In this document: in pieces, positions 862 through 16,376 of the stretch | Position numbering within the stretch: the stretch's first letter is position 1 | Layout: every line of letters begins with the position of its first letter | IMG/VR virus record: IMGVR_UViG_2850784384_000009 | Location: 1 to 16,376 of that record | DNA length: 16,376 nt | Strand: one strand, 5' to 3' | DNA from: a virus | Lineage: Duplodnaviria > Heunggongvirae > Uroviricota > Caudoviricetes | The notes under the pieces: generated by a model | Database searches by the model: none | Told to the model about the DNA's origin: nothing | The model's input: only the letters and a program-made list of their open reading frames with translations | Translations under genes and position numbers: made by a program

Positions 862-945
862 ACTTGTGAAGGAAATGGTACTCAGGGGGATTCCAGTACA
901 GGTGGTGCGCAATTAGCTATAAATGGCCTTAACGGTTCGTGCGCT

Positions 946-1569
946 TTGGTATTAAACAACCCATACTTTGAGGCTAATGCCGGGGGGGCAGACCTTGCTA
1001 TAGATAATACTGGGACGCGCCCTGTAACTGTGGTTATAAACGGTGGAAATTTTCATCGCGTGAGCAGTGCAAGATACACGCACACGAATATTCAAGTAAC
1101 AAGCTCAGGTGGGGGAAAAGTTACAGTCATACTCAACGGCACAACGTTCCAGAGCGCAGGGGATTATCAGCCAAGTGCAGAACGACCATACTGGATAACA
1201 GGAGCTAATTGCGAGGTAGTTGACATTGGGTGTGTTTTTACAGAAACAACCAGTAAGGTAACATCGGCTTCTGCATTGTCAGTCACACGCTCGGGAAAAA
1301 TTAACGCCAATGGTAGTATCGACGTTGCTACTGGTGTTTCATCGGTTAACGTGGTTTCTACAGGTGTGTATGATGTTAGCTTTTCTCATCCGCTCGCAGC
1401 AGTTGCTAGCGGTTATATTGTGCAGATAACACCTATATCTGCGCCTGATTCAGTTAGTTGTGATGTTACTTATATTGGCGTAGATACATTTAGGGTGACC
1501 CTGCGCAATACGCTTAGCGGGGCAGGAATCTCCAGTTCGTTTGCATTTAGCATTACCAGACTAATATAA
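946..1569 (+). CDS. 5'-truncated gene fragment of unknown function; possibly the C-terminal receptor-binding part of a tailspike or tail fibre
   Basis: ORF starts at a TTG, but the frame is open with no stop and no start codon back to the IS600 end at 862, so the native 5' part was removed by the IS. It occupies the tailspike position of Sf6/P22 gene order (tailspike, O-antigen modification gene, attP, int). The protein is Gly/Ser/Thr/Val-rich, which fits a beta-rich fold; no motif recognised. Confidence 0.35.
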   Translation: MVLNNPYFEANAGGADLAIDNTGTRPVTVVINGGNFHRVSSARYTHTNIQVTSSGGGKVTVILNGTTFQSAGDYQPSAERPYWITGANCEVVDIGCVFTETTSKVTSASALSVTRSGKINANGSIDVATGVSSVNVVSTGVYDVSFSHPLAAVASGYIVQITPISAPDSVSCDVTYIGVDTFRVTLRNTLSGAGISSSFAFSITRLI

Positions 1570-1577
1570 ATACATTC

Positions 1578-1609
1578 GCCGCCCCATTTGGACATATATG
1601 TAGGGCGGC
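1578..1609. terminator. Putative bidirectional stem-loop terminator between convergent genes
   Basis: gccgccc (1578..1584) and gggcggc (1603..1609) are perfect inverse complements. The 18-nt loop contains the palindrome acatatatgt. T-rich sequence follows on the plus strand. The long loop makes this uncertain. Confidence 0.3.
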
Positions 1610-1622
1610 TTATGTTTATTGT

Positions 1623-2795
1623 TTATTGATTGTTGTTTGTTAATGTGGGTATTAATTCTTTTACTAAAGTTGTGGTTTGTTTTGTTAATTTGATGAATGG
1701 CGTCTCTATTAATTTAAAAGTTAGGCATGATGTGAACGTAATAAGAAATGCAGTTGTGCTTACCAGTATGATAAATGTATTTTCAGTGTAATTATTAGGA
1801 ATAATCCACGTCATTAGGCAATAAAGGAATATCCCATGCAGAAGGTAAACGCTGTAGGTAGTTTCTCCTAGCTTTCTGGTTATATTTAATCTTAATATTC
1901 CATACAAATCACAACCTGATGCGATAATGATAAATGTTATTCCACAAAGAATCAGTGGTAGCGGTGCGTAAGTTGTTTTGAAATACGTCATTTCAAAAAC
2001 CATTATCGCAGTTATTATAATTGGTGTTACTTTTGCTTTGGCAATTCCATTGACTATCTTTGATTTATTTAGCAAAAATGCCAGGAGCCCAAAAAGAAAT
2101 GATGCTATGTGTATTTTACTGAAAAATAAAATGAAAACAAATAGCGATATTGCGCTAATCATAACCATGTAAATACTGACTTTTCTTTTTATGAGCGCGG
2201 AAATTACCGGAAGAGAAAAATAAAAGAACCATTCATATACAAGTGTCCATGTTACAGCGGCATTGATAGTAAATGAATCTTTTACGTCATTAATGTTCGG
2301 CATACCTAGCGCAGTGAATGGCAACCACTTCATTATTGACACAAAAAGCTCTTCTGTGGATACCTGCATTCTCCATCCAGACTTAAAACCTACAATGATA
2401 AAAATGAGACATAGGCTAACTATGAACATTGGGGTTAATCGTAGTAATCTTGATACATAAAGCCTTGTCCAGTCCTGATCTCCAGAGATAATCTTTGAAA
2501 AGAACAGATAACCAGTAATCATAAAAAAGAATGACACACCAACTTGGCCTAAATTTGCTAACAGATTTGATGAAGGTGCTTCCCATACTCCAGATGACAA
2601 GTATCCATTCCAAATTGCTGCGTGATGAATAAGCACGAAAATTGCTAAGAACCCCCGCATTCCATCTATTTGATTATTCCTGCCGTGCTCAACAAGATTT
2701 ATTGGGGAAATTTTATCAAATAACCCCACAGCTAATAACGACATCAATATCACGGATGTTATTAATAATAAACTGTTAATTTCAATCATATGCAT
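1623..2795 (-). CDS. Acyltransferase family 3 integral membrane protein; putative O-antigen O-acetyltransferase (Oac/OafA-like serotype-conversion protein)
   Basis: 390-aa ORF, strongly hydrophobic throughout (multiple predicted TM segments). N-terminal DGMRGFLAIFVLIHHA resembles the acyltransferase-3 signature (conserved R...H). Markedly AT-rich compared with neighbouring phage genes. Sits immediately next to the att core, as oac does in Sf6 and gtr does in P22. Confidence 0.75.
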   Translation of the reverse strand: MHMIEINSLLLITSVILMSLLAVGLFDKISPINLVEHGRNNQIDGMRGFLAIFVLIHHAAIWNGYLSSGVWEAPSSNLLANLGQVGVSFFFMITGYLFFSKIISGDQDWTRLYVSRLLRLTPMFIVSLCLIFIIVGFKSGWRMQVSTEELFVSIMKWLPFTALGMPNINDVKDSFTINAAVTWTLVYEWFFYFSLPVISALIKRKVSIYMVMISAISLFVFILFFSKIHIASFLFGLLAFLLNKSKIVNGIAKAKVTPIIITAIMVFEMTYFKTTYAPLPLILCGITFIIIASGCDLYGILRLNITRKLGETTYSVYLLHGIFLYCLMTWIIPNNYTENTFIILVSTTAFLITFTSCLTFKLIETPFIKLTKQTTTLVKELIPTLTNNNQ

Positions 2796-3083
2796 GCTCT
2801 ATTACGCAATTAAAATTTCTCCAAGTATACTGACTTTTAGTTAATGATCATATAGTTATGTGTAACTGATGAAACAAAACGGAGACACACCAAGCTTTGC
2901 ACTGGATTGCAAGGCTTTGTGCTCTTCTGTGAATGTGTGGCTATATGTTTGAAGATCGTTGTGCCGTATTTGTGACATATATATGGCAACATCATGCATC
3001 AACTTTCTGTTTGTGTCATCAACTATAGCTTAGTGAATGCGGTTAATGCTTGCTAAAACAGATAGTTATGATTGGTGCTACAG

Positions 3084-3129
3084 ATTCGTAATGCGAAGGT
3101 CGTAGGTTCGACTGCTATTATCGGCACCA
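3084..3129 (+). other. Phage attachment core: 3' 46 nt of a tRNA-Thr gene (thrW-type), attP-like
   Basis: attcgtaatgcgaaggtcgtaggttcgact(g)ctattatcggcacca matches the anticodon-loop-to-CCA end of tRNA-Thr(CGU) as recalled. Upstream sequence is not the tRNA 5' half, so no complete tRNA is present. One apparent T-stem mismatch relative to my recollection of thrW. Confidence 0.75.
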
Positions 3130-3143
3130 TTTAAATCAATAAG

Positions 3144-3592
3144 TTACACATCATTAGTACCTTCCTTATTTCTTGACTGGGACAAATTTGGGACCGATGG
3201 GTTCAGAATCAAGTCTATTTGCCGTGCGTGTTCGGTAAGGTGATTAGGTGCGAGGTGAGCATATCGACGAACCATTTCGATAGACTCCCAGCCTCCCATT
3301 TCCTGTAACACTGATAACGGGACTCCGGCTTGAACCAGCCAACTTGCCCAGGTGTGTCTCAAGTCGTGAAATCTGAAATCATCAATACCAGCCCGTCTCA
3401 GCGCCGCTTTCCAGGCTGTGTTTGCGTCATACCGCATCTTCCTTACTGTTGGCGCTTTCGTTCCGTCTGGTTTGGTACAGCTTTCCTTGTACACAAATAC
3501 CCAACGGTGATGATTTCCGATTTGTTTTTTCAATACGCGACATGCAGTATCATTCAGCGCAACGCCAATTGCGCGGTTTGATTTACTCTCTT
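3144..3592 (-). pseudogene. int: Tyrosine integrase, C-terminal catalytic fragment (P22-type Int), separated from its N-terminal part by IS600
   Basis: Contains [15 protein letters not shown] and VRRYAHL (the H-x-x-R and Y of the catalytic tetrad). The first 5 codons of the track ORF 3144..3608 come from the IS600 end. Reads on directly from the N-terminal fragment at 5633..6350. Confidence 0.85.
3590..3592. repeat. 3-bp target-site duplication (ctt) of IS600 copy B, left copy; right copy at 5633..5635
   Basis: ctt immediately flanks both ends of the element (3590..3592 and 5633..5635). Confidence 0.8.
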
Positions 3593-3775
3593 TGAGGTGT
3601 ACTGGCAATAGCGGACACTACCATTTGTTCTTTTTTAAGCAGCCATCTGATGATATTTTTCCCTGAAGGCTGCCGGGGAGATATTCCCCAGACGAGAGTG
3701 ACGACGCTGACGATTGTAGAAAATCTCAATGTATTCCCGTATTACTGAGATGGCTTCATCGGTAATGACTCCAAC

Positions 3776-4279
3776 TTACTGATAGTGTTTTATGTTCAGA
3801 TAATGCCCGATGACCTTGTCATGCAGCTCCACCGATTTTGAGAACGACAGTGACTTCCGTCCCAGCCTTGCCAGATGTTGTCTCAGATTCAGATTATGTC
3901 GCTCAATGCGCTGAGTGTAACGCTTGCTGATAACGTGCAGCTTTCCCTTCAGGCGTGATTCATACAGCGGTCAGCCATCCGTCATCCATACCACGACCTC
4001 AAAGGCCGACAGCAGGCTCAGAAGACGCTCCAGTGTGGCCAGAGTGCGTTCCCCGAAGACGTGCGCCACAACCGTCCTCCGTATCCTGTCATACGCGTAA
4101 AACAGCCAGCGCTGACGTGATTTAGCACCGACGTAGCCCCAATGTTCGTCCATTTCAGCGCAGACAATCACATCACTGCCCGGTTGTATGCGCGAGGTTA
4201 CCGACTGCGGCCTGAGTTTTTTAAGTGACGTAAAACCGTGTTGAGGCCAACGCCCATAATGCGTGCGCTGGCGCGACAT
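3776..4279 (-). pseudogene. insB: IS1 insB reading frame interrupted by an in-frame TGA
   Basis: Frame reads ...VVVWMTDG then TGA (minus-strand codon at 3971..3973) where canonical InsB has Trp (TGG). The frame then continues [27 protein letters not shown]... to the normal end. Confidence 0.75.
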
Positions 4280-4473
4280 CCGACGCCATTCATGGCCATA
4301 TCAATGATTTTCTGGTGCGTACCGGGCTGAGAGGCGGTGTAAGTGAACTGTAGTTGCCATGTTTTACGGCAATGAGAGCAGAGATAGCGCTGATGTCCGG
4401 CAGTGCTTTTGCCGTTACGCACCACGCCTTCAGTAGCGGAGCAGGAAGGACATCTGATGGAAATGGAAGCCAC
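4198..4473 (-). CDS. insA: IS1 InsA (transposition inhibitor / N-terminal part of InsAB')
   Basis: 91-aa [46 protein letters not shown]..., close to canonical InsA with a few substitutions. Confidence 0.9.
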
Positions 4474-4528
4474 GCAAGCACCTTAAAATCACCATCATAC
4501 ACTAAATCAGTAAGTTGGCAGCATTACC

Positions 4529-5230
4529 GGCTTCATCCCGGTTATTAAAACGATAGTGGCTCAGGCTCTCATTTTTCAGCGTTCCCCAGAAGCTTTCCAT
4601 CGGAGCGTTGTCGTAACAGTTACCTTTACGCGACATTGATGTTTTCAGACCAAACTGCTCCTGTATGACCCGGTAATCGTATGCGCAGTACTGTGAACCT
4701 CGATCAGAGTGGTGGATTAGCCCGGCAGGTGGGCGCTGGCTCCTGAGCGCCATAAACAGGGCTTTACCTGTCAGCTCTTTTGTCATGCGCTCTCCCATGG
4801 CGTAGCCGACAATTTCACACGTATAAACATCTTTGATGCCAGCGAGGTACAACCATCCCTCCTGTGTGGCAACATACGTCAGGTCCGCCACCCAGACCTG
4901 ATTTGGTGCTGTAGGAGCGAACGTCTGGTTCAGCAGATTTGGCGCAACTGGCAGATTGTGGTTCGGGTTCGTAGTCGCTCTGAACTTGCGTTTCTGCTTA
5001 CAGCGTAGCCTTAGCTCCTTACGAAGACGTGCCAGTCGGTCACGACCAACGATGATGCCATTCTCTGCCAGCTCCGTCTGGAGCCGCCGGGTTCCATATG
5101 TTTCGCGAGTGCGGATATGTGCCACCTTAATCTCCAGTTTTAGTCGCTCATCACTTTGTTTTCTGTCTGAGGGTTCATGCTGTACCCAGTTGTAATAACC
5201 GCTCCTGGATACACCAAATACCTGACACAT
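4529..5230 (-). pseudogene. IS600 OrfB transposase, 5' part, disrupted by the IS1 insertion (3' remainder at about 3635..3760)
   Basis: Identical to the plus-strand OrfB up to ...FNNRDEA, then the sequence runs into the IS1 end. The last residues of the track ORF 4502..5230 are IS1-derived. Confidence 0.85.
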
Positions 5231-5265
5231 CGCTTCAATGGGAAATTGTTGTCGCCATTGTTCGA

Positions 5266-5568
5266 TTAACGCGTATTTTTCAGCGACTCCTGTGCAAAAT
5301 ACGCTGTTGCTTTTTTTAATATATCTCGCTCAAGGCGAGCTTCATTTAACGCCTTACGCAGTTGCAGAATTTCAGATTCCAGTTCAGCCACCGTGCGGGA
5401 ACCAGGAGTACCGAGCCCTTTTCTGGCGGCGGTAACCCATTGTCCTAAAGTGCCTTCAGGAAGGAATAATCGGGAAGCGTCTTCACTGATCGAAAGTTGA
5501 TTTTCAAGAACCGTTCTGACAGCTTCGGCTTTGAACTCTTTAGAGTAACGTCGGGTTTTTCTGCTCAT
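5266..5568 (-). CDS. IS600 OrfA (helix-turn-helix / leucine-zipper transposase N-terminal protein)
   Basis: 100-aa ORF MSRKTRRYSKEFKAEAVRTVLENQLSISE..., matching IS600 ORF1 as recalled. Confidence 0.9.
   Translation of the reverse strand: MSRKTRRYSKEFKAEAVRTVLENQLSISEDASRLFLPEGTLGQWVTAARKGLGTPGSRTVAELESEILQLRKALNEARLERDILKKATAYFAQESLKNTR
5311..5317 (-). promoter_or_regulatory. Probable programmed -1 ribosomal frameshift slippery site (A7) for the IS600 OrfAB fusion
   Basis: ttttttt on the plus strand is A AAA AAA on the coding strand, near the 3' end of OrfA where the OrfB frame overlaps. This is the standard IS3-family arrangement. Confidence 0.5.
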
Positions 5569-5632
5569 TATTAGCTCCTTCTGATGCCATTCTATTTCAG
5601 GAAGGAGTGTCCGTTAAACTCAGGCTACCTCA

Positions 5633-6350
5633 CTTCCGGGTTTATCCATGCCACCCGGCGCTGCATATCTATTTGTTGCCATTCAAGGTTGATGATGTTC
5701 GAGCGTCTTAAGCCTGTTGCCAGTGCAAATTCAACAACAGACTTTAATGGCTCCGGACATTCATCAATCAGCCTTTGTGCTTCATGGGGCTCCAGCCAGC
5801 GGATCCGTTTATTCTTTGGTTGAGGCACTTTAATAATTGGTGCCTTATCCAGCATTTTCCATTCACGCTCTGCGGCTCTTAGTAGGGCCTTTATAAATGA
5901 AAGATGCGTAGCCTTCGTTGCAACGGACGCTGGTTTTGGCGTGTATTCTGGAACAGGTTTCCCTTTTTTTCTGCATGATTCTGCCCTGAGTTTCCAGTTT
6001 TCCTCATGACGCCGGTTCGTCATTTTCTGCATTGCTGAATAAATTTTTGATTCAGTAATGTCTCTTAGTTGTATTCCTGCGAAATGTTGAAGCCAGAATC
6101 CGATCCGGCTTTTGTCATCGTCCAGTGATTTTTTATGTGCTTTCTCTTCAAGCCACCTGACACACGCTTCCTCGAACGTTATATCAGGTATTTCACCAAG
6201 TTTGCTGACCCGCCATGCTTCAGCCTTTAGCTTGTCATGGAGTTCTGTCGCCTGCCTTTTGTCCTTTGTTCCAAGAGACTGTTTAAATCTTTTACCGTTC
6301 GGCAATGTGAAACTGGCGTACCATATTTCACCTCTGCGGAAGAGTGACAT
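5633..6350 (-). pseudogene. int: Tyrosine integrase, N-terminal fragment (P22-type Int), interrupted by IS600
   Basis: [46 protein letters not shown]... matches the P22 Int N-terminus as recalled. Contains TGLRRSNI (the first catalytic Arg). The last 3 codons of the track ORF plus the stop are IS-derived. Confidence 0.85.
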
Positions 6351-6428
6351 TTTCTTTCCTCTGTTATGCCATCACCCGCGCTCACCTGGACAGTATGCAG
6401 CGGAGACTGAAGAGCCGCAATGAAGTGG

Positions 6429-7597
<1,169 letters not shown>

Positions 7598-7669
7598 TGG
7601 AGCACCTGTGTTGTTCTGAGGTGAGCATATCACCTCTGTTCAGGTGGCCAAATTCAGTGTGCCACTTCA

Positions 7670-8824
7670 TGGATGCCTGTTGAGCAGGAAGCGCCAACCC
7701 AGACTGGCTGGGATTTAACTGGCAACGCAACCGGGATTCTGGAACTCTCCGTGAAGTGCAACATGGGCGATCCGGATAACGATTTCTTCGAGCTTCGTGC
7801 AGATGACCTGCGTGATGAGCGTTCTTACCGTCGCCGCATCCAGGCATCCGCCAAAAAACTGGCGAATAACATTGAGTCAGCGATTGCCAAACAGGCAACT
7901 GAAATGGGCTCGCTTGTTGTTCACGATACCCGCGCAATTGGTCCATCGACTGGCCTGCCTGGCTGGGATTTTGTGTCTGATGCAGAGCGACTGATGTTCT
8001 CCCGTGAGCTAAACCGCGACATGGGCATCAGTTACTTCCTGAACCCTGACGATTACCGCAAAGCAGGCCGCAACCTGGTAGATGGTGACATCTTCGGGCG
8101 CGTTCCTGAAGAAGCATATCGAAACGGTACTATTCAGCGTCAGATTGCTGGCTTTGATGAAATTCTTCGCTCACCGAAACTTCCGGCAGTTACCAAGTCA
8201 ACCGCGACTGGTGTAACTGTTTCTGGTGCGCAGAAGTTTAAGCCGCAGGCATACACCCTTGATACCGATGGTAACAAAGAGAACGTCGACAACCGTGTTG
8301 CAACGGTGACCGTATCCTCCACCACCGGATTTAAGCGCGGCGACAAAATCAGCTTCATTGGTGTGAAGTTCCTGTCTCAGATGGCGAAGAATGTGCTGAC
8401 TGATGACGCGACTTTCTCAATCACCCGTGTGATCGATGGTACTCACATCGAAATCACGCCGAAGCCGATTGCGCTGGATGACGCGTCACTGACAAAAGAA
8501 GAGAAGGCTTACGCTAACGTAAACACCTCTCTTGCTGATACCACTCCGGTAAACGTTCTGAACGTGGCAACAACCACCGCTAACGTGTTCTGGGCTGATG
8601 ACTCAATCCGCCTGCTGTCTCAGCCGATCCCGGTAACCCATGAACTGTTTGCTGGCATGAAAACGTCTTCCTTCAGCATTCCAGGTATTGGTGTTAACGG
8701 CATCTTCGCAACGCAGGGTGATATCAACACTCTGTCTGGTAAGTGCCGTATTGCTGTGTGGTATTCAGCATGTGCTGTACGACCAGAGGCAATTGGTGTT
8801 GGTCTGCCTAACCAGACCGCGTGA
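7670..8824 (+). pseudogene. P22-type major capsid (coat) protein gene, 5'-truncated at the IS911 boundary
   Basis: Reading frame from 7670 gives [18 protein letters not shown]... ending GVGLPNQTA, which aligns with P22 gp5 from about residue 46 to its C-terminus as recalled. No native start or ribosome-binding site; IS911 directly abuts. Confidence 0.85.
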
Positions 8825-8868
8825 TAACCAGAGGGAGCTTCGGCTCCCGTTTTTATCTGGAGACAAGC

Positions 8869-9093
8869 ATGACACACATGATCTTTCGTCATGGCGACAT
8901 GAAGAAGTGGAAAGGCGTTGGCTACGACTTTGAAATCGTGAAAGCCGAAGAGCTTCAGGAATATCTGGATGCTGGCTGGTTTTCACATCCTGATGACCTT
9001 TTGAAGGATGTTGCAGAGCCAGAAGAAAAACAGTGTAAAAAGCCTGGTCGAAAACCTAAGGCGGCAGCAGATGAACCTGACAACGAAGGGTGA
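8869..9093 (+). CDS. Small hypothetical protein between the coat and gp4-like genes
   Basis: ATG at 8869 preceded by ggaga. 74 aa with an acidic, Lys/Pro-rich C-terminus. Overlaps the gp4-like start by 23 bp. The track ORF start at 8821 overlaps the coat stop and is unlikely. Confidence 0.4.
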
Positions 9094-9571
9094 TTTAGTT
9101 CTTGCGGCATTACGTAAGCTCGGTGTTGCATCAAATGCCACGTTAACCGATGTCGAACCGCAGTCTATGGAAGACGGCGTCAACGACCTTGAAATGATGA
9201 TGGCTGAATGGCTTGGCGGTGATGCGTCACCTGGTATCAACGTTGGCTACATTTTTGCTGATGCAGATGTTGCTCCGGATCCGGGCGATGAGCACGGTTT
9301 ATCAAATAACGCTATCAATGCCGTCATTTTCAACCTTGCCTGCCGAATTGCTCCAGATTATGCGCTGGAAGCGTCTGCAAAACTTATAACCACTGCCAGA
9401 TACGGGAAAGAGCGACTCGTCAAACTGTCTGCAATGGACAGGGCAAAAGCAGCTAAATGTAAGTCCGGTTATCCAAACCGTATGCCTGTTGGTAGTGGTA
9501 ACCAGTTGGCGAAGTGGAATGGTTGGAATTACTTCCACCGAAAGGAACCTTGCGATAACGGGAGCGAATAA
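9071..9571 (+). CDS. P22 gp4-like head completion / portal-closure protein
   Basis: From the internal Met: [33 protein letters not shown]... is 166 aa and resembles P22 gp4 as recalled. The upstream 21 codons of the track ORF are probably not translated. Confidence 0.75.
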
Positions 9572-10989
9572 TGCCTATTCAGCAACTTCCGCTTATGAAA
9601 GGTGTCGGCAAAGACTTCCGAAACGCCGACTATATCGACTATCTGCCAGTGAATATGCTGGCTACACCCAAAGAAATCCTGAACAGCAGCGGATATCTTC
9701 GCTCATTCCCGGGCATTGCCAAACGTTCTGACGTGAACGGTGTATCTCGCGGCGTCGAGTACAACATGGCGCAGAATGCTGTTTATCGCGTGTGTGGCGG
9801 CAAGCTGTACAAAGGAGAAAGTGAAGTCGGTGATGTTGCCGGAAGTGGTCGTGTATCAATGGCGCATGGTCGGACATCACAGGCGGTAGGCGTTAATGGT
9901 CAACTGGTCGAGTATCGCTATGATGGCACGGTCAAAACCGTCTCAAACTGGCCTACAGACAGTGGATTCACTCAGTATGAGTTAGGTTCAGTTCGCGACA
10001 TTACGCGCTTACGTGGGCGTTATGCGTGGTCAAAAGACGGAACTGATTCATGGTTTATCACTGACCTTGAAGACGAATCTCATCCTGACCGTTACAGCGC
10101 ACAATATCGTGCCGAGTCTCAGCCTGACGGCATCATCGGTATCGGGACATGGCGAGACTTCATCGTCTGCTTTGGTTCATCGACTATTGAATATTTCTCC
10201 CTGACTGGCGCAACCACCGTTGGTGCCGCTTTGTATGTTGCACAACCATCGCTGATGGTGCAGAAAGGCATTGCCGGAACTTACTGCAAAACGCCATTCG
10301 CTGATTCGTATGCGTTTATCAGCAATCCGGCAACGGGTGCGCCGTCTGTGTATATCATCGACTCCGGTCAGGTGTCACCAATTGCCAGCGCGAGCATTGA
10401 GAAAATCCTCCGCTCCTACACTGCTGATGAACTGGCTGATGGTGTGATGGAATCGCTGCGATTTGATGCTCATGAGTTGCTGATTATCCACCTTCCGCGT
10501 CACGTCCTCGTGTACGACGCATCTTCAAGCGCCAATGGCCCACAATGGTGTGTGCTGAAAACAGGTCTGTATGACGATGTGTACCGCGCTATCGACTTCG
10601 TTTACGAAGGCAATCAGATAACGTGCGGCGATAAGCTGGAATCTGTTACCGGGAAACTGCAATTCGATATCAGCAGCCAGTACGACAAGCAACAGGAACA
10701 CCTGCTGTTTACTCCACTCTTCAAAGCGGATAACGCCAGAGTGTTCGACCTTGAGGTTGAATCGTCAACTGGCGTTGCGCAGTACGCCGACCGCCTTTTT
10801 CTCTCTGCAACCACTGACTGCATCAATTACGGGCGTGAGCAGATGATTGAGCAGAATGAACCGTTCGTTTACGACAAGCGTGTTTTGTGGAAGCGAGTAG
10901 GGCGCATCAGGAAAAATGTCGGCTTCAAATTGCGCGTTATCACGAAGTCACCTGTCACTCTGTCTGGCGCTCAGATAAGGATTGAGTAA
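9571..10989 (+). CDS. P22 gp10-like head completion / tail hub protein
   Basis: 472 aa starting [49 protein letters not shown], near-identical to P22 gp10 as recalled. Start overlaps the upstream stop (taATG). Confidence 0.85.
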
Positions 10990-11786
10990 TGGCTGATTCG
11001 AATCTCAATGTGCCGGTAATCATCCAAGCTACGCGGCTCGATACATCAGTCCTTCCACGCAATATCTTCTCGCAGTCGTATCTGCTTTACGTTATCGCAC
11101 AGGGCACTGATGTTGGTAACGTGGCTAACAAAGCCAACGAGGCCGGACAGGGCGCTTATGATGCACAGGTCAGGAACGATGAGCAGGATGTGATTCTCGC
11201 TGACCATGAGCAGCGAATTTCTGCTGCGGAAGCAACGCTTGTTAATCATGAGGAGCGAATCAGACAGGCAGAATCAACTCTTCAGGACCATGAAACACGA
11301 ATAGCTCAGAATGAAAGCGATATTTCGTCGCTTGACACAAGAGTTCAGTCGCTGGAGTCGCAGGTTTCAGACCATGAAACGCGCATCGATGCTCTGGAGT
11401 ATGCAACCACACGCAAGAAGTCAGAGGTTGTTTACTCTGGTGTATCTGTAACCATCCCGACAGCGCCGACCAACCTTGTTAGCCTGCTGAAAACGCTCAC
11501 ACCGTCATCCGGCTCGTTGGCACCATTCTTCGACACCGTTAACAACAAGATGGTTGTGTTCAACGAGAACAAAACCCTGCTCTTCAAGTTGTCGATTGTC
11601 GGCACGTGGCCCAGCGGAACCGCCAACAGGTCAATGCAGCTAACCTTTTCCGGCTCTGTTCCTGACACACTGGTCAGCAGTCGTAATGCGGCGACAACAA
11701 CCGACAACATCCTGTTAGCTACGTTCTTCAGCGTGGATAAAGACGGCTTTCTTGCCACAACCATCAAGATAATCGCGGAGCAGTGA
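10989..11786 (+). CDS. P22 gp26-like tail needle (cell-envelope penetrating plug) with an extended C-terminal domain
   Basis: Conserved N-terminus [41 protein letters not shown]. Central 14-residue periodic repeat (DHExRI...) typical of the trimeric coiled-coil core. About 125 aa of C-terminal domain beyond the helical core. Confidence 0.8.
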
Positions 11787-12241
11787 TGATTACATTCAAA
11801 CCAACGCGAAACATCGACCTGATAGAAGCAGTCGGAAATCACCCTGACATTATCGCCGGGAGCAACAACGGTGATGGATACGACTACAAACCTGAATGCC
11901 GTTACTTTGAGGTGAACGTGCACGGTCAGTTTGGCGGCATTGTTTACTATCAGGAGATTCAGCCGCTGACATTAGATTGCCACGCCATGTACCTGCCAGA
12001 GATTCGCGGCTTCAGCAAGGAAATTGGGCTGGCGTTCTGGCGATACATTCTGACTAACACCACCGTTCAGTGCGTAACATCGTTCGCTGCACGCAAATTC
12101 CGACACGGTCAGATGTACTGCGCAATGATTGGCCTTAAGCGTGTAGGAACCATCAAGAAATACTTCAAAGGCGTGGATGACGTGACTTTTTACAGCGCCA
12201 CACGCGAAGAACTAATCGACTTCCTGAATCACGGGAGATAG
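11783..12241 (+). CDS. gp14-position virion assembly/ejection-associated protein
   Basis: Intact 152-aa ORF immediately after the needle gene with an ATGA start/stop overlap. Assigned by synteny with P22 (26, 14, 7, 20, 16). Confidence 0.55.
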
Positions 12242-12243
12242 CC

Positions 12244-12852
12244 ATGTTATATGCATTTAAGCTGGGCAGAAAACTGTGCGGCGAGGAACCTTATTGCCCT
12301 GAAAAAGGCGGGAAAGGTGGCAGTTCTGATAAAAGCGCAAAGTATGCAGCAGAAGCCCAGAAGTATGCTGCAGACCTGCAAAATCAGCAGTGGCAGACGA
12401 TCATGAAAAACCTTGCTCCGTTCACGCCTCTTGCGGAGCAGTATGTTAACCAGCTTCAGAACCTTTCCAGTTTAGAAGGTCAGGGGCAGGCACTTAATCA
12501 GTATTACAACTCTAAGCAGTATAAAGACCTTGCAGGGCAGGCGCGTTACCAGAGTCTTGCTGCTGCGGAGGCGACGGGTGGACTTGGTTCGACAGCCACA
12601 AGCAATCAACTGGCTACGATCGCGCCGACACTCGGTCAGTCTTGGTTATCAAATCAGATGAGCAATTACAACAATCTGGCAAACGTTGGGCTTGGTGCGC
12701 TGCAAGGTCAGGCAAACGCCGGGCAGACGTACGCCAACAACATGAGCAGCATTGCACAGCAAAGCGCAGCTCTTGCCAGCCTTTTGGGAACATCAACGCC
12801 TTGGGGCGCTGGTATTGGTGCTGGTATCGGATTGCTTGGCTCGTTGTTTTAA
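12244..12852 (+). CDS. gp7-like ejection (internal virion) protein
   Basis: 202-aa ORF MLYAFKLGRKLCGEEPYCPEKGGKGGSS... with a Gly-rich hydrophobic C-terminus. Assigned by synteny and N-terminal resemblance. Confidence 0.6.
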   Translation: MLYAFKLGRKLCGEEPYCPEKGGKGGSSDKSAKYAAEAQKYAADLQNQQWQTIMKNLAPFTPLAEQYVNQLQNLSSLEGQGQALNQYYNSKQYKDLAGQARYQSLAAAEATGGLGSTATSNQLATIAPTLGQSWLSNQMSNYNNLANVGLGALQGQANAGQTYANNMSSIAQQSAALASLLGTSTPWGAGIGAGIGLLGSLF

Positions 12853-12861
12853 GGGGTAATC

Positions 12862-14193
12862 ATGGCTACTTGGCAAGGAACAAACGGCGGATTGTTGGCT
12901 GGTATCGGCGGCGTCAACTCAAACGCTCCGAGCGTAAATGACATCGGCAATACGCTTCAGCTTATCAGGCAGAACAATGATATTGAGCGTTCAGGCGCTA
13001 ACAATGTTGGGCTGACTGCTTTGCAAGGTCTTTCAGGTATTGCGGGTGTTTTTCAGCAGGAAAAGCAGGCTCAGCGGCAGAAAGAATTTCAGCAGGCGTA
13101 CGCTAATGCTTATGCGTCTGGTGATCGCGGTGCTTTGCGTCAGTTGGCTACTCAATATCCAGACCAGATTGAATCCGTTCGTAAAGGCATGGGATTCATT
13201 GATGAAGAGCAGCGTAATTCTATCGGCACCTTAGCGGCTGGCGCACGCCTTGCGTCATCGTCTCCAGAAGCAATGCAATCATGGCTGCAAAACAACGCCG
13301 GTGAGTTAGCTCGTGTTGGCGTTAATCCTCATGACGTCGCTCAGATGTACCAACAGAACCCGCGGCAGTTCGGCGAATTTGTCGATCACCTGGGGATGAA
13401 CAGTCTCGGGCCCGAAAAATACTTTGACCTACAGGATAAAATGCAGGGTCGCCAGGTTACCATGCGCGGTCAGGATCTGGATTCGCAAACCGCCGCTCGG
13501 AATCAGGCAATCACAATGCGCGGACAAGATATCCAGGCGAATTTAGGTCAGCAGCGCATTAATCTGGACGCAGAAACAAACCGCATTAACAACGAAAATA
13601 AGCGCCTTGACCGGATGCTATCAGCAGAAACTAACGACCTGAAGCGCCAGGAAATACAGAGCCGCATAGCAGCCAACAACCAGCAGTTGCAGCAGAAGCA
13701 GCAAGCGCTAAATGATGGCTACAAAGACGGCATCAACACCCTCACAACCAGCATGTTCACTCTGAACGATATCGTTAGTTCTCCTTCACTTAAGAGCATT
13801 ACAGGCTTACGTGGAGTAATCCCCAACGTTCCAGGCTCACAGGCTGCAGACACTCAGGCACGACTTGATACCTTTAAATCACAAGCATACCTGACAGCGG
13901 TTCAGGCCATGCGAGGCATGGGCGCACTTTCTGATGCCGAGGGCAAAAAGCTCGACCAGGCTGTTGGTTCGCTGCAGAACTCGCAGAGCGAGGAGTCCTT
14001 TCGTCGCAACGCTGGCGTCATCCTGAACACGCTCAACCAGAAGCGTAATGAGGCGGTTGGTAAGTACGTTCAGCAAAACGGTATCAAGCGAGTGGAAGCG
14101 CCTCAGGCTTCTATAGATTACCTGAAGCAGCACCCCGAGCTGTCAATCGACTTCATTAATCGCTACGGATATCTTCCATCTTTGGGGCAGTAA
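12862..14193 (+). CDS. gp20-like ejection (internal virion) protein
   Basis: 443-aa ORF, Gln/Asn-rich with internal TMRGQD repeats. Assigned by synteny. Confidence 0.6.
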   Translation: MATWQGTNGGLLAGIGGVNSNAPSVNDIGNTLQLIRQNNDIERSGANNVGLTALQGLSGIAGVFQQEKQAQRQKEFQQAYANAYASGDRGALRQLATQYPDQIESVRKGMGFIDEEQRNSIGTLAAGARLASSSPEAMQSWLQNNAGELARVGVNPHDVAQMYQQNPRQFGEFVDHLGMNSLGPEKYFDLQDKMQGRQVTMRGQDLDSQTAARNQAITMRGQDIQANLGQQRINLDAETNRINNENKRLDRMLSAETNDLKRQEIQSRIAANNQQLQQKQQALNDGYKDGINTLTTSMFTLNDIVSSPSLKSITGLRGVIPNVPGSQAADTQARLDTFKSQAYLTAVQAMRGMGALSDAEGKKLDQAVGSLQNSQSEESFRRNAGVILNTLNQKRNEAVGKYVQQNGIKRVEAPQASIDYLKQHPELSIDFINRYGYLPSLGQ

Positions 14194-15924
14194 ATGGCTA
14201 ATTACCGTGATTTGTTAGAGCAGGCTGGCGCACGTTACGGTGTGCCAGAAGGGTTGATGACTGCACTGGGTGCCAAGGAGTCTTCTTACAACCCTGCCGC
14301 AGTAAGCTCCGCCGGGGCTGTAGGATTGACTCAGGTCATGCCTGGGACATGGCGTGATATGGGTTATACCGATGAGCAAATGCAAAACCCCGAATATCAG
14401 GCTGACGCTGGCGCGCGCTATCTGGCAAAGATGTACCAGCAGTTTGGTAACTGGCGTGACGCTCTTCAGGCTTATCACGACGGTCCCGGCAACGTTATGA
14501 AGGCAAAGCGTGGTGAATATACGCCAGGACCTGAAGGCCGCGGTTACGTTGATGATCGCTTTGCTCAATGGGCTGGTGACCCGGTGACAGACTCAACAGT
14601 CGAACAGCGCGCCACCTCTGCAAAGGTACATCCTCAGCAAGACCCTAACAACCCGTTTGCACAACTGGAAGTACAGTCATCCGAACAAGTATCGGCATCA
14701 GGTGTGCAGTCAGACCCAAATAATCCATTTGCTCAGATTGAGCAGCAGGCAGCCAGTCAGCAGCCACCTCAACCCGTAAGTTCTGTCGCACCGAAACCTG
14801 TTCAGCAACAAACAGTTAATCAGGCCAATAATGCACCAACACGGGAAGAACCATCATTGATGCAACAAGCTGGCGATTGGCTCACTGGTGGTCAAAGTGC
14901 AGGGCAAATTGCAGAACAGGCTGGTCGTGGTCTGGTAAACATACCATTTGACGTATTGCAGGGTGGCGCAAGTCTGATTAATGCAATCAGTCAGGGGCTT
15001 GGGGGGCCAAAAGTATTGGATGATGTTTATCGTCCAGTAGACAGACCGACAGACCCCTACGCGCAAGCTGGAGAGTCAATAGGCGGTTATCTTGTTCCTG
15101 GAGCAGGTGTAGCTGGAAACATGGTCATTGGTTCTCTCGCTGACGCGGCGAATCAACGGGGTGATTTTGCCGAAAATGCCGCTATTAATGCCGGACTTAG
15201 CATTGCTACGCATGGCCTGATAAATGGCGTTACCCGTGGTGTTCGTGGTGCATCAAATATAATTAGTGGCAATAAAACATCTGCACAGAGAGCGACCACT
15301 GCGCCAACAGAAACATCACCATTCTCCGGTGATGCCGCTGCAGCAACAAATCCTGCGGTTCATGCCGCAGAGGCAAGAGTAGCACAAGGTGTACCAATGA
15401 CGCCTGCGACGAAGAACCCAGAGGAAGTCGTTCGCACAGTAGCAGCACAAAAAAGGCCAAATCTCGCTTCATCGCTTGATGAACTAGATATCAATCCTCA
15501 GGCTGAAGTTCTGGAGTCTGCTGAAAGGCTTAATGTTGATTCATTACTCCCTTCACACTTTTCCGGGAACGAGCAATACAAGGCAGTTGAGCAAGCAATC
15601 AAGTCCCGTGCGGGTTCTGCTCTACAGGTGCAGGAAAATGAAGCAATCAGGCAGCTAGCACAGGGCGCGGGTGAGATAATTGATCGCGTTTCCGGTGCAA
15701 AAGATGCTCTTGGTATGAGCGACAAGTTTATTGATACGGTCAATGGAAGAATGTCTGCGCTGATGAAACGAAGCGACCAGCTTTATCGCAATGTTGAAAA
15801 GGCGATGCCTGCAGGTGCAAAAATTGATGCGCCATCAACAAGGTCAATGCTCAAACAGGTGGCAGAAGATCTTGGCGGGATGAAAAACCTTGACCCTATT
15901 GAAAAGAGAGTTGAGGTAGCCTGA
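14194..15924 (+). CDS. gp16-position ejection protein with N-terminal lytic transglycosylase (SLT) domain; 3' end replaced by the IS600 terminus
   Basis: N-terminal [28 protein letters not shown] plus AYHDGPGNV are SLT-family motifs including the catalytic Glu-Ser. The last 4 codons (VEVA) and the stop lie inside the IS600 left end, which starts at 15912. Confidence 0.7.
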
Positions 15925-15995
15925 GTTTAACGGACACTCCTTCCTGAAATAGAATGGCATCAGAAGGAGCTAATAATGAGCAGAAAAACCCAACG
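15912..15995 (+). mobile_element. IS600 left-end fragment (inverted repeat plus first 7 codons of OrfA), interrupted by IS629
   Basis: tgaggtagcctgagtttaacggacactccttcctgaaatagaatggcatcagaaggagctaataatgagcagaaaaaccc is identical to the inverse complement of 5553..5632. It diverges at 15996 where IS629 begins. Confidence 0.85.
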
Positions 15996-16376
15996 TGAAC
16001 CGCCCCGGGAATCCTGGAGACTAAACTTCCTGAGAAAGAGGTAAACAGGATGACTAAAAATACTCGTTTTTCCCCCGAAGTCCGTCAACGGGCAGTCCGT
16101 ATGGTTCTGGAAAGTCAGGGCGAATATGACTCACAATGGGCGACAATTTGTTCCATTGCCCCAAAGATTGGCTGTACGCCGGAGACTCTGCGTGTCTGGG
16201 TTCGCCAGCATGAGCGGGATACCGGGGGCGGTGATGGAGGGCTCACCACCGCTGAACGTCAGCGTCTGAAAGAGCTGGAGCGTGAAAATCGTGAACTGCG
16301 CCGCAGTAACGATATCCTTCGCCAGGCTTCCGCTTATTTTGCGAAGGCGGAGTTCGACCGCCTCTGGAAAAAATGA
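15996..16376 (+). mobile_element. IS629 (IS3 family), left end and OrfA; continues beyond the window
   Basis: Starts tgaaccgccccgggaatcctggagac, the IS629 terminus as recalled, followed by OrfA. Confidence 0.8.
16050..16376 (+). CDS. IS629 OrfA
   Basis: 108-aa [53 protein letters not shown]...AEFDRLWKK. The window ends at its stop codon. Confidence 0.85.

Follow-up and report, generated by a model that had tools for sequence, protein, structure and literature searches.

P22 gp16 (609 aa) and Sf6 gp13 (665 aa) occupy the same operon position as the gene described here, and both are E proteins that complete a channel at the cytoplasmic membrane. P22 gp16 has been assigned to the cytoplasmic-membrane part of this channel, on the gp20 "club foot" (bioRxiv 10.64898/2026.09.03.749273), and its C-terminal region is the site of SieA-escape changes (PMC10461980). 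It has been stated in a review that P22-like phages have no transglycosylase on gp16 (PMC8954989). The N-terminal region of T7 gp16 consists of a transglycosylase (residues 1-156) and a "molecular tape" (157-228) that binds gp15 (PMC8954989). The closest described protein is gp13 of phage Sf101. Together with E. coli prophage proteins of the identical type, it has an SLT domain, a doubled DPNNPFAQ motif, an upstream gp20 and the same gene order as the locus studied here.

In this study, an ORF was analyzed near the right end of a 16,376-nt stretch of viral DNA (hereafter the window). We explain it as an IS600-cut pseudogene that holds the 5' 63% of the gene for a third ejection (E) protein, within the remnant of an Sf101-like, P22-type temperate podophage in the Shigella flexneri chromosome, and with a motif pair that was selected at the peptide level. 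The probability of this joint reading is put at about 0.9. The gene family, its domain architecture and the very same cut allele are already known from databases. The relevant features are as follows.

12862..14193, plus strand: gp20-type ejection protein, 443 aa (PF16928, E=1.1e-67), C-terminal tail ...INRYGYLPSLGQ
14194..15924, plus strand: chimeric, cut-short ORF, 576 codons followed by TGA (573 native, 3 from IS600)
14212..14523, plus strand: SLT (GH23-type) lytic transglycosylase domain, residues 7-110 (Pfam PF01464, E=1.9e-25)
14278-14280, plus strand: putative catalytic Glu29 in "AKESSY", placed at Slt70 residue 478 by alignment offsets alone
14554..14838, plus strand: Gln/Pro/Ser-rich linker from the SLT domain to the gp16 core, ~residues 121-215, a variable cassette in the alignment
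14641..14664, plus strand: DPNNPFAQ copy 1, residues 150-157, GACCCTAACAACCCGTTTGCACAA
14713..14736, plus strand: DPNNPFAQ copy 2, residues 174-181, GACCCAAATAATCCATTTGCTCAG
14839..15911, plus strand: retained P22 gp16-type body with the conserved core, residues ~216-573 (from PHROG 770 and identity to P22 gp16)
15912..15996, plus strand: IS600 left end, inverted repeat TGAGGTAGCC... and first 7 orfA codons (ATG at 15976), 85/85 identity
15996..16376, plus strand: IS3-family element inside IS600, TGAACCGCCCCGGG... (TGAACCGCC...), orfA at 16050-16376 running off the window

Domains and family of the ORF

The N-terminus of the ORF was matched by PF01464 with 89.2 bits over residues 7-110 (Pfam gathering score, 21.3), which confirms the lytic transglycosylase domain proposed in a first-pass annotation made from the letters of the sequence. 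PHROG 342 also matched this region (E=1.8e-24). The domain contains the motifs KE29SS, GLTQ44-47 and AYHDGPG93-99, as read from the sequence. The catalytic domain of E. coli Slt70 could be aligned (query 4-102 to chain 453-560); residue 478 of that enzyme is the catalytic Glu, and the matching Glu of T7 gp16 is likewise catalytic. Alignment with the N-terminus of T7 gp16 gave 28% identity over 130 aa (BLASTP, E=2e-10, residues 2-119 to T7 10-139), with the T7 sequence "TESRF" falling on the E-S motif region. The two domains are colinear and homologous with the ES motif kept, and in T7 too the largest ejection protein has the domain at its very N-terminus. Each protein continues with an extended, non-globular segment; however, past the SLT domain T7 gp16 has no sequence similarity to the ORF, and the remainder is unrelated in size and sequence. 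The Sf101 subgroup (Lederbergvirus-type) does have an SLT domain at the gp16 N-terminus, homologous to that of T7 gp16. From its sequence and by homology with the N-terminal part of T7 gp16, the domain would be expected to open the peptidoglycan by local cutting when present in an intact phage protein.

Beyond the linker the ORF belongs to the P22 gp16 family, PF26808 / PHROG 770. PHROG 770 ("DNA transfer protein") matched residues 108-566 with E=8.8e-107, from position 3 to position 349 of its 668 positions, which leaves the rest of the profile, and with it the C-terminal third of the protein, uncovered. PF26808 (Phage_P22_gp16) is precomputed, together with PF01464, for the identical database protein. 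The alignment with the P22 and Sf6 proteins that had been proposed as a check was informative for part of the ORF. The conserved core common to the ORF and P22 gp16 is seen at 81% identity between ORF residues 221-353 and P22 gp16 53-189, whereas the N-terminus has no counterpart: the P22 and Sf6 proteins begin with other modules (MKVTANGKTF... and MAKAWKDV..., respectively) and lack both the SLT domain and DPxNPF. Their bodies beyond the core are unrelated to the ORF at the BLAST level. Upstream, Pfam matches were found in the order P22 coat, gp4, gp10, needle knob, DUF2824 (gp14), P22_gp7 and Inj_translocase, the tail needle being of the Sf6 type, and the ORF is the last gene of a P22-order block gp14-gp7-gp20-gp16. 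The SLT match, PHROG 770, PF26808 and this gene order agree in identifying an ejection protein, as had been claimed. By homology, the intact 911-aa protein would be carried inside the head and ejected on infection, and its body, like that of P22 gp16, would complete the trans-envelope channel at the cytoplasmic membrane, below the dodecameric periplasmic tube of gp20.

The IS600 junction and the missing C-terminus

Sf101 gp13 (YP_009153087.1; 911 aa) is an intact orthologue, which matches the ORF at 567 of 573 residues (99% identity over residues 1-573). A second intact 911-aa ORF was found in a prophage of E. coli strain F1005 (NZ_OY754353.1, 1880022-1882757; L002, 4395..7130). The first-pass annotation held that the native 3' end is missing and suggested measuring the loss against orthologues; both 911-aa proteins bear this out, and with Sf101 gp13 as reference the loss is 338 of 911 residues (37%). 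In the window copy, residues 574-911 are absent and the last three residues are encoded by IS600. Lost with them are a Gly/Ala-rich, moderately hydrophobic segment (~800-825) and the tail that is conserved at the C-terminus; the native coding sequence of the missing part, from codon 574 onward, is ...TTTCGGGCAGTTAATCC.

Identity to the intact orthologues stops at base 15911, where the native sequence reads ...AAGAGAGTC TTT CGG and the window reads ...AAGAGAGT|TGAGGTAGCCTGAG. At the codon level, native GTC TTT CGG is replaced by GT|T GAG GTA GCC TGA. IS600 thus supplies the third base of Val573 (still Val), the residues Glu-Val-Ala, and the TGA at 15922-15924. The earlier proposal that the C-terminus is read from the IS600 inverted repeat is therefore correct from 15912 on, but the contribution is three whole codons and one base, not four codons. 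From 15912, all 85 bases are identical to the left end of an element annotated as "IS3-like element IS600 family transposase"; the closest known counterparts are the IS600 insertions of Shigella genomes. Two other IS600 segments are present in the window, and a second copy of the left end (5548-5632, minus strand) matches the 85 bp at 98.8%. At the gp16 gene only an 85-bp stump of IS600 is visible, with an IS629-like element of the IS3 family inside it; base 15996 is common to the stump and the next element and hence ambiguous. We take the element at 15996..16376 to be IS629, from its end sequence and OrfA; the tools give only "IS3 family transposase". The window ends inside this second IS. 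Reverse nesting, with IS600 inside an IS629-like element, was observed on pO157-like E. coli plasmids (L003).

The order of events is most likely as follows. IS600 inserted after base 15911, in codon 573, and took the 338 C-terminal residues out of the reading frame, so that translation runs 3 codons into the inverted repeat and ends at the TGA; the second IS then inserted 85 bp into IS600. No homology to Sf101 13249-14266, the missing 3' third, was found anywhere in the window. This third of the gene could still lie downstream of the IS elements (simple insertion), or it could have been deleted.

It might be argued that the protein ends naturally near residue 573 and that the IS merely lies downstream of a short isoform, since shorter family members exist, e.g., 569-aa E. 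coli proteins (P0047 and P0082). These carry a different body, of the 797/813-aa kind, and orthologues with the Sf101-type body all run on through ...IEKRV-FRAVNPGK... to 911 aa. In addition, DNA identity stops at the first IS600 base and the last residues, EVA, are IS-encoded. A natural end, the objection foreseen in the first-pass annotation, is refuted, and we give it practically no weight. The interruption by IS600 stands as the explanation of the short frame. The 569-aa SLT-gp16 form itself, with its 797/813-type body, was seen in E. coli prophages (P0047, P0082 and L006), with P0082 on 66 contigs, and may represent either a naturally short version or a further case of repeated truncation.

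The DPNNPFAQ pair and the gp20 tail

The linker contains DPNNPFAQ twice, 24 residues apart, with 6 synonymous differences between the copies, exactly as first noticed. The copies lie 72 nt apart and are identical at 18 of 24 bases, with all six differences at third positions, and the full repeat unit is Q-x-DPNNPFAQ-[LI]-E-x-Q with a 24-residue period. An exact 8-residue repeat occurred in none of 2000 shuffles of the protein (the longest repeat was 7, in 3 shuffles). Among 120 homologues, SLT proteins of the MANY... type have the pair at ~150 and ~174, with four exceptions in which one copy is mutated, and they have it independently of the body that follows (569, 790, 797, 813, 836, 875, 911 or 934 aa). 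IMG/VR was also scanned with degenerate DNA encoding the octapeptide, which returned 48 loci; in 45 of them, all from the Sf101-gp13-type family, there are two copies at a spacing of exactly 72 nt.

A short exact repeat at a fixed spacing of 72 nt could also reflect a recent DNA duplication, gene conversion or a DNA-level signal without peptide meaning. Six of the eight codons, however, differ synonymously between the copies, and the copy-specific spelling is kept in 40 of the 45 viral contigs, the rare variants being again synonymous. Homologues from Cronobacter, Klebsiella and Shimwellia have DP[NDS]NPFAQ at both sites despite a changed 16-residue spacer, with the longer form DP[NDS]NPFAQ[IL]E in Klebsiella, Shimwellia and other diverged members, and a similar DPxNPFA occurs in an unrelated protein family (P0123 and P0124, see below). 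An origin at the DNA level is therefore highly improbable, and the peptide-level conservation inferred in the first-pass annotation is upheld by the diverged homologues and the codon spelling. Judged from these sequences, the motif pair is an old feature of the linker between SLT domain and body, kept by selection on the peptide.

The linker as such has a narrow distribution. When residues 112-200 were compared exhaustively (phmmer) with 1.84 billion representatives, only 4 proteins were found, all of the Sf101-gp13-type family, which indicates that the linker is no widespread module. A word-indexed protein search with the linker alone gave two fragments and nothing further. A tblastn search of 50,697 phage records with the motif region yielded only 10 records of this ejection-protein family, which represent 7 named phages. 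A full-text literature search for DPNNPF or NPFAQ gave nothing relevant. In an AlphaFold2 model of the 576-aa protein (mean pLDDT, 48) the SLT domain alone was confident, mostly 70-86 but ~45-49 at residues 31-50, and the linker had no confident fold (~30-57).

One outlier was recovered, an 800-aa protein (P0123) on a 41.7-kb viral contig (L042, IMGVR_UViG_3300012942_000020), which has DPNNPFAQI at residues 43-51 and no SLT domain. PHROG 342 ("internal virion protein") matches its family, but weakly. In a homologue with 42% identity (P0124), DPTNPFAL occupies the corresponding N-terminal position between different flanking residues, so that DPxNPFA is conserved in a tail that otherwise is not. 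These two sequences hint that DPxNPFA may be a short linear motif and not a family-specific relic. A relaxed DNA scan gave one additional match (L056), which lies within an unrelated ORF of 651 aa, at residue 531, and was set aside as probable chance. The TolB-binding epitope of colicin E9 (..ENNPW..) was considered as a relative of the motif and rejected, with only ~4 residues in common.

The N-terminal module of gp16 was found to go together with the C-terminal tail of gp20. The module with SLT and two DPNNPFAQ copies pairs with the gp20 tail ...INRYGYLPSLGQ in the window, in Sf101 and in ~50 loci. The MKVTANGKTF module pairs with ...SGI[QK]FTVE (P22 and L057), the MAKAWKDV module with ...NFSSLWGD (Sf6 and L059), and a second SLT type with QPWAQ pairs with ...GYTFLGGDPS..NWRK (L064 and L066). 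The C-tail of gp20 and the N-module of gp16 are thus swapped as one cassette, with four pairs that are one-to-one in all loci examined (L005-L066). Between the gp20 of the window and Sf6 gp12 there is 65% identity over residues 1-394 and no relationship in the last ~45, which shows that co-inheritance can involve only a short stretch of gp20. Free recombination is observed for the gp16 body and for the N-terminal half of gp20 (L005-L066; window 13900..14838).

This pairing is suggestive, by analogy, of docking of the gp16 N-module on the C-terminal end of gp20, and our best guess is that the motif pair would dock gp16 onto the gp20 tail that matches it, or act there as a "tape". In its full form the idea is that large podophage ejection proteins have DPxNPFA in their N-terminal tails as a short linear motif for docking, and that the Sf101-type copies clamp the gp20 C-tail ("club foot" end) as an analogue of the T7 gp16 "molecular tape". 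Such docking, if true, would explain why the gp20 C-tail and gp16 N-module are exchanged jointly. A single variable cassette between conserved recombination sites would produce the pairing equally well. The linker has no sequence similarity to the T7 tape, and no DPxNPF motif was found in T7 gp14, gp15 or gp16. We regard the clamp as a tentative and rather unlikely proposal. The gp16-gp20 interface was left unresolved by the 2026 in-situ structure of P22 (bioRxiv 10.64898/2026.09.03.749273), and the double motif, with the strict pairing of gp16 N-module and gp20 C-tail, offers a testable handle on it. In the literature that could be searched, neither the conserved DPxNPFA pair nor its link with one type of gp20 tail is described; this is a modest lead, not a discovery.

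The prophage remnant and the spread of the cut allele

The window as a whole is what remains of an Sf101-like prophage riddled with IS elements. Upstream of the virion gene block the following features were found.

1-862: right part of an IS600, which cuts the tailspike gene
~922-1569: tailspike gene without its 5' end
1623-2795, minus strand: oacB-like acyltransferase (O-acetyltransferase) gene, intact
3144-6350: integrase gene split by an IS600 that carries IS1
6420-7669: IS911, which cuts the coat gene; 100% identical to S. flexneri pINV copies
from 7670: coat gene without its 5' end, then virion genes to the cut gp16

The segment with the oacB-like gene has 91% DNA identity to the tailspike-3'/oacB region of Sf101; the integrase gave no DNA match to Sf101. 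No terminase, portal or scaffold genes were found within the window. The order tailspike-oac-int followed by coat...gp16 (922..7670 and 7670..15911) is odd for a single prophage integrated via its own attP, and it suggests a tandem lysogen or an IS-mediated rearrangement.

The same cut allele, with 2 nt different, was found in a Logan contig (L004, ERR3134011) behind intact portal, scaffold and coat genes; the end of a terminase gene precedes the portal and runs off the locus. The IS600 insertion is therefore older than much of the decay in the window. Three contigs from IMG/VR and one from Logan have an identical nested IS600/IS junction. The allele occurs in hundreds of S. flexneri assemblies, where it is annotated as partial, and the partial proteins carry S. 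flexneri names. From the identical junction and these names we conclude that the allele is inherited clonally. The identical 576-aa database protein (P0001) has 227 member sequences.

The prophage is unable to make virions: IS911 cuts the coat gene, IS600 the tailspike gene and IS600::IS1 the integrase gene, and terminase, portal and scaffold are missing from the window. The cut product consequently has no ejection role. A domesticated function, in which S. flexneri would keep the 576-aa protein as a working lytic transglycosylase, has some points in its favor: the SLT motifs and Glu29 survive intact in an open frame, the allele is found in hundreds of assemblies, and dN/dS against intact alleles is low (0.09-0.11). 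The prevalence is explained by clonal descent, however, with the identical nested junction in every copy examined. The low dN/dS is mostly pre-insertion history, since it indicates divergence older than the inactivation with little further decay since then, and the two cut copies compared differ by only 2 nt. Neighboring genes have deletions and IS cuts, and the window showed neither a late-operon promoter nor regulator genes. The N-terminus does not resemble a signal peptide by eye and hence offers no visible route to the periplasm, which together with the inability of the prophage to assemble particles makes a retained function unlikely; domestication in particular we consider very improbable. 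The ORF is best read as a pseudogene on the strength of the cut and its context, its 573 native codons being internally undamaged. The gene itself matters little, as it is one more IS-inactivated Shigella prophage gene that is already databased as a "partial" lytic-transglycosylase protein.

The allele apparently contaminates annotation resources. Sf101 gp13 is labeled "transglycosylase" in GenBank and "lytic tail fiber protein" in RefSeq, and "tail fiber" is a misleading name for an ejection protein. PHROG 21143, also named "lytic tail fiber protein", has exactly 576 positions and matched the ORF end to end with 1364.8 bits, the IS-encoded tail included; it seems to have been built on the cut Shigella allele. 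The 911-aa orthologue of E. coli F1005 is called "incomplete; missing C-terminus" by RefSeq/PGAP, with the annotated end placed exactly where the IS600 junction lies in Shigella, although the ORF is intact. This label is probably an annotation artefact passed on from the cut Shigella reference protein.

Small deletions were also seen in two genes of the remnant when compared with the Logan contig. The gp7 homologue (12244..12852) has an in-frame deletion of 84 nt (28 aa) and the tail-needle gene (10989..11786) one of 51 nt (17 aa), both apparently between short direct repeats (12- and 17-nt overlaps of adjacent BLAST segments).
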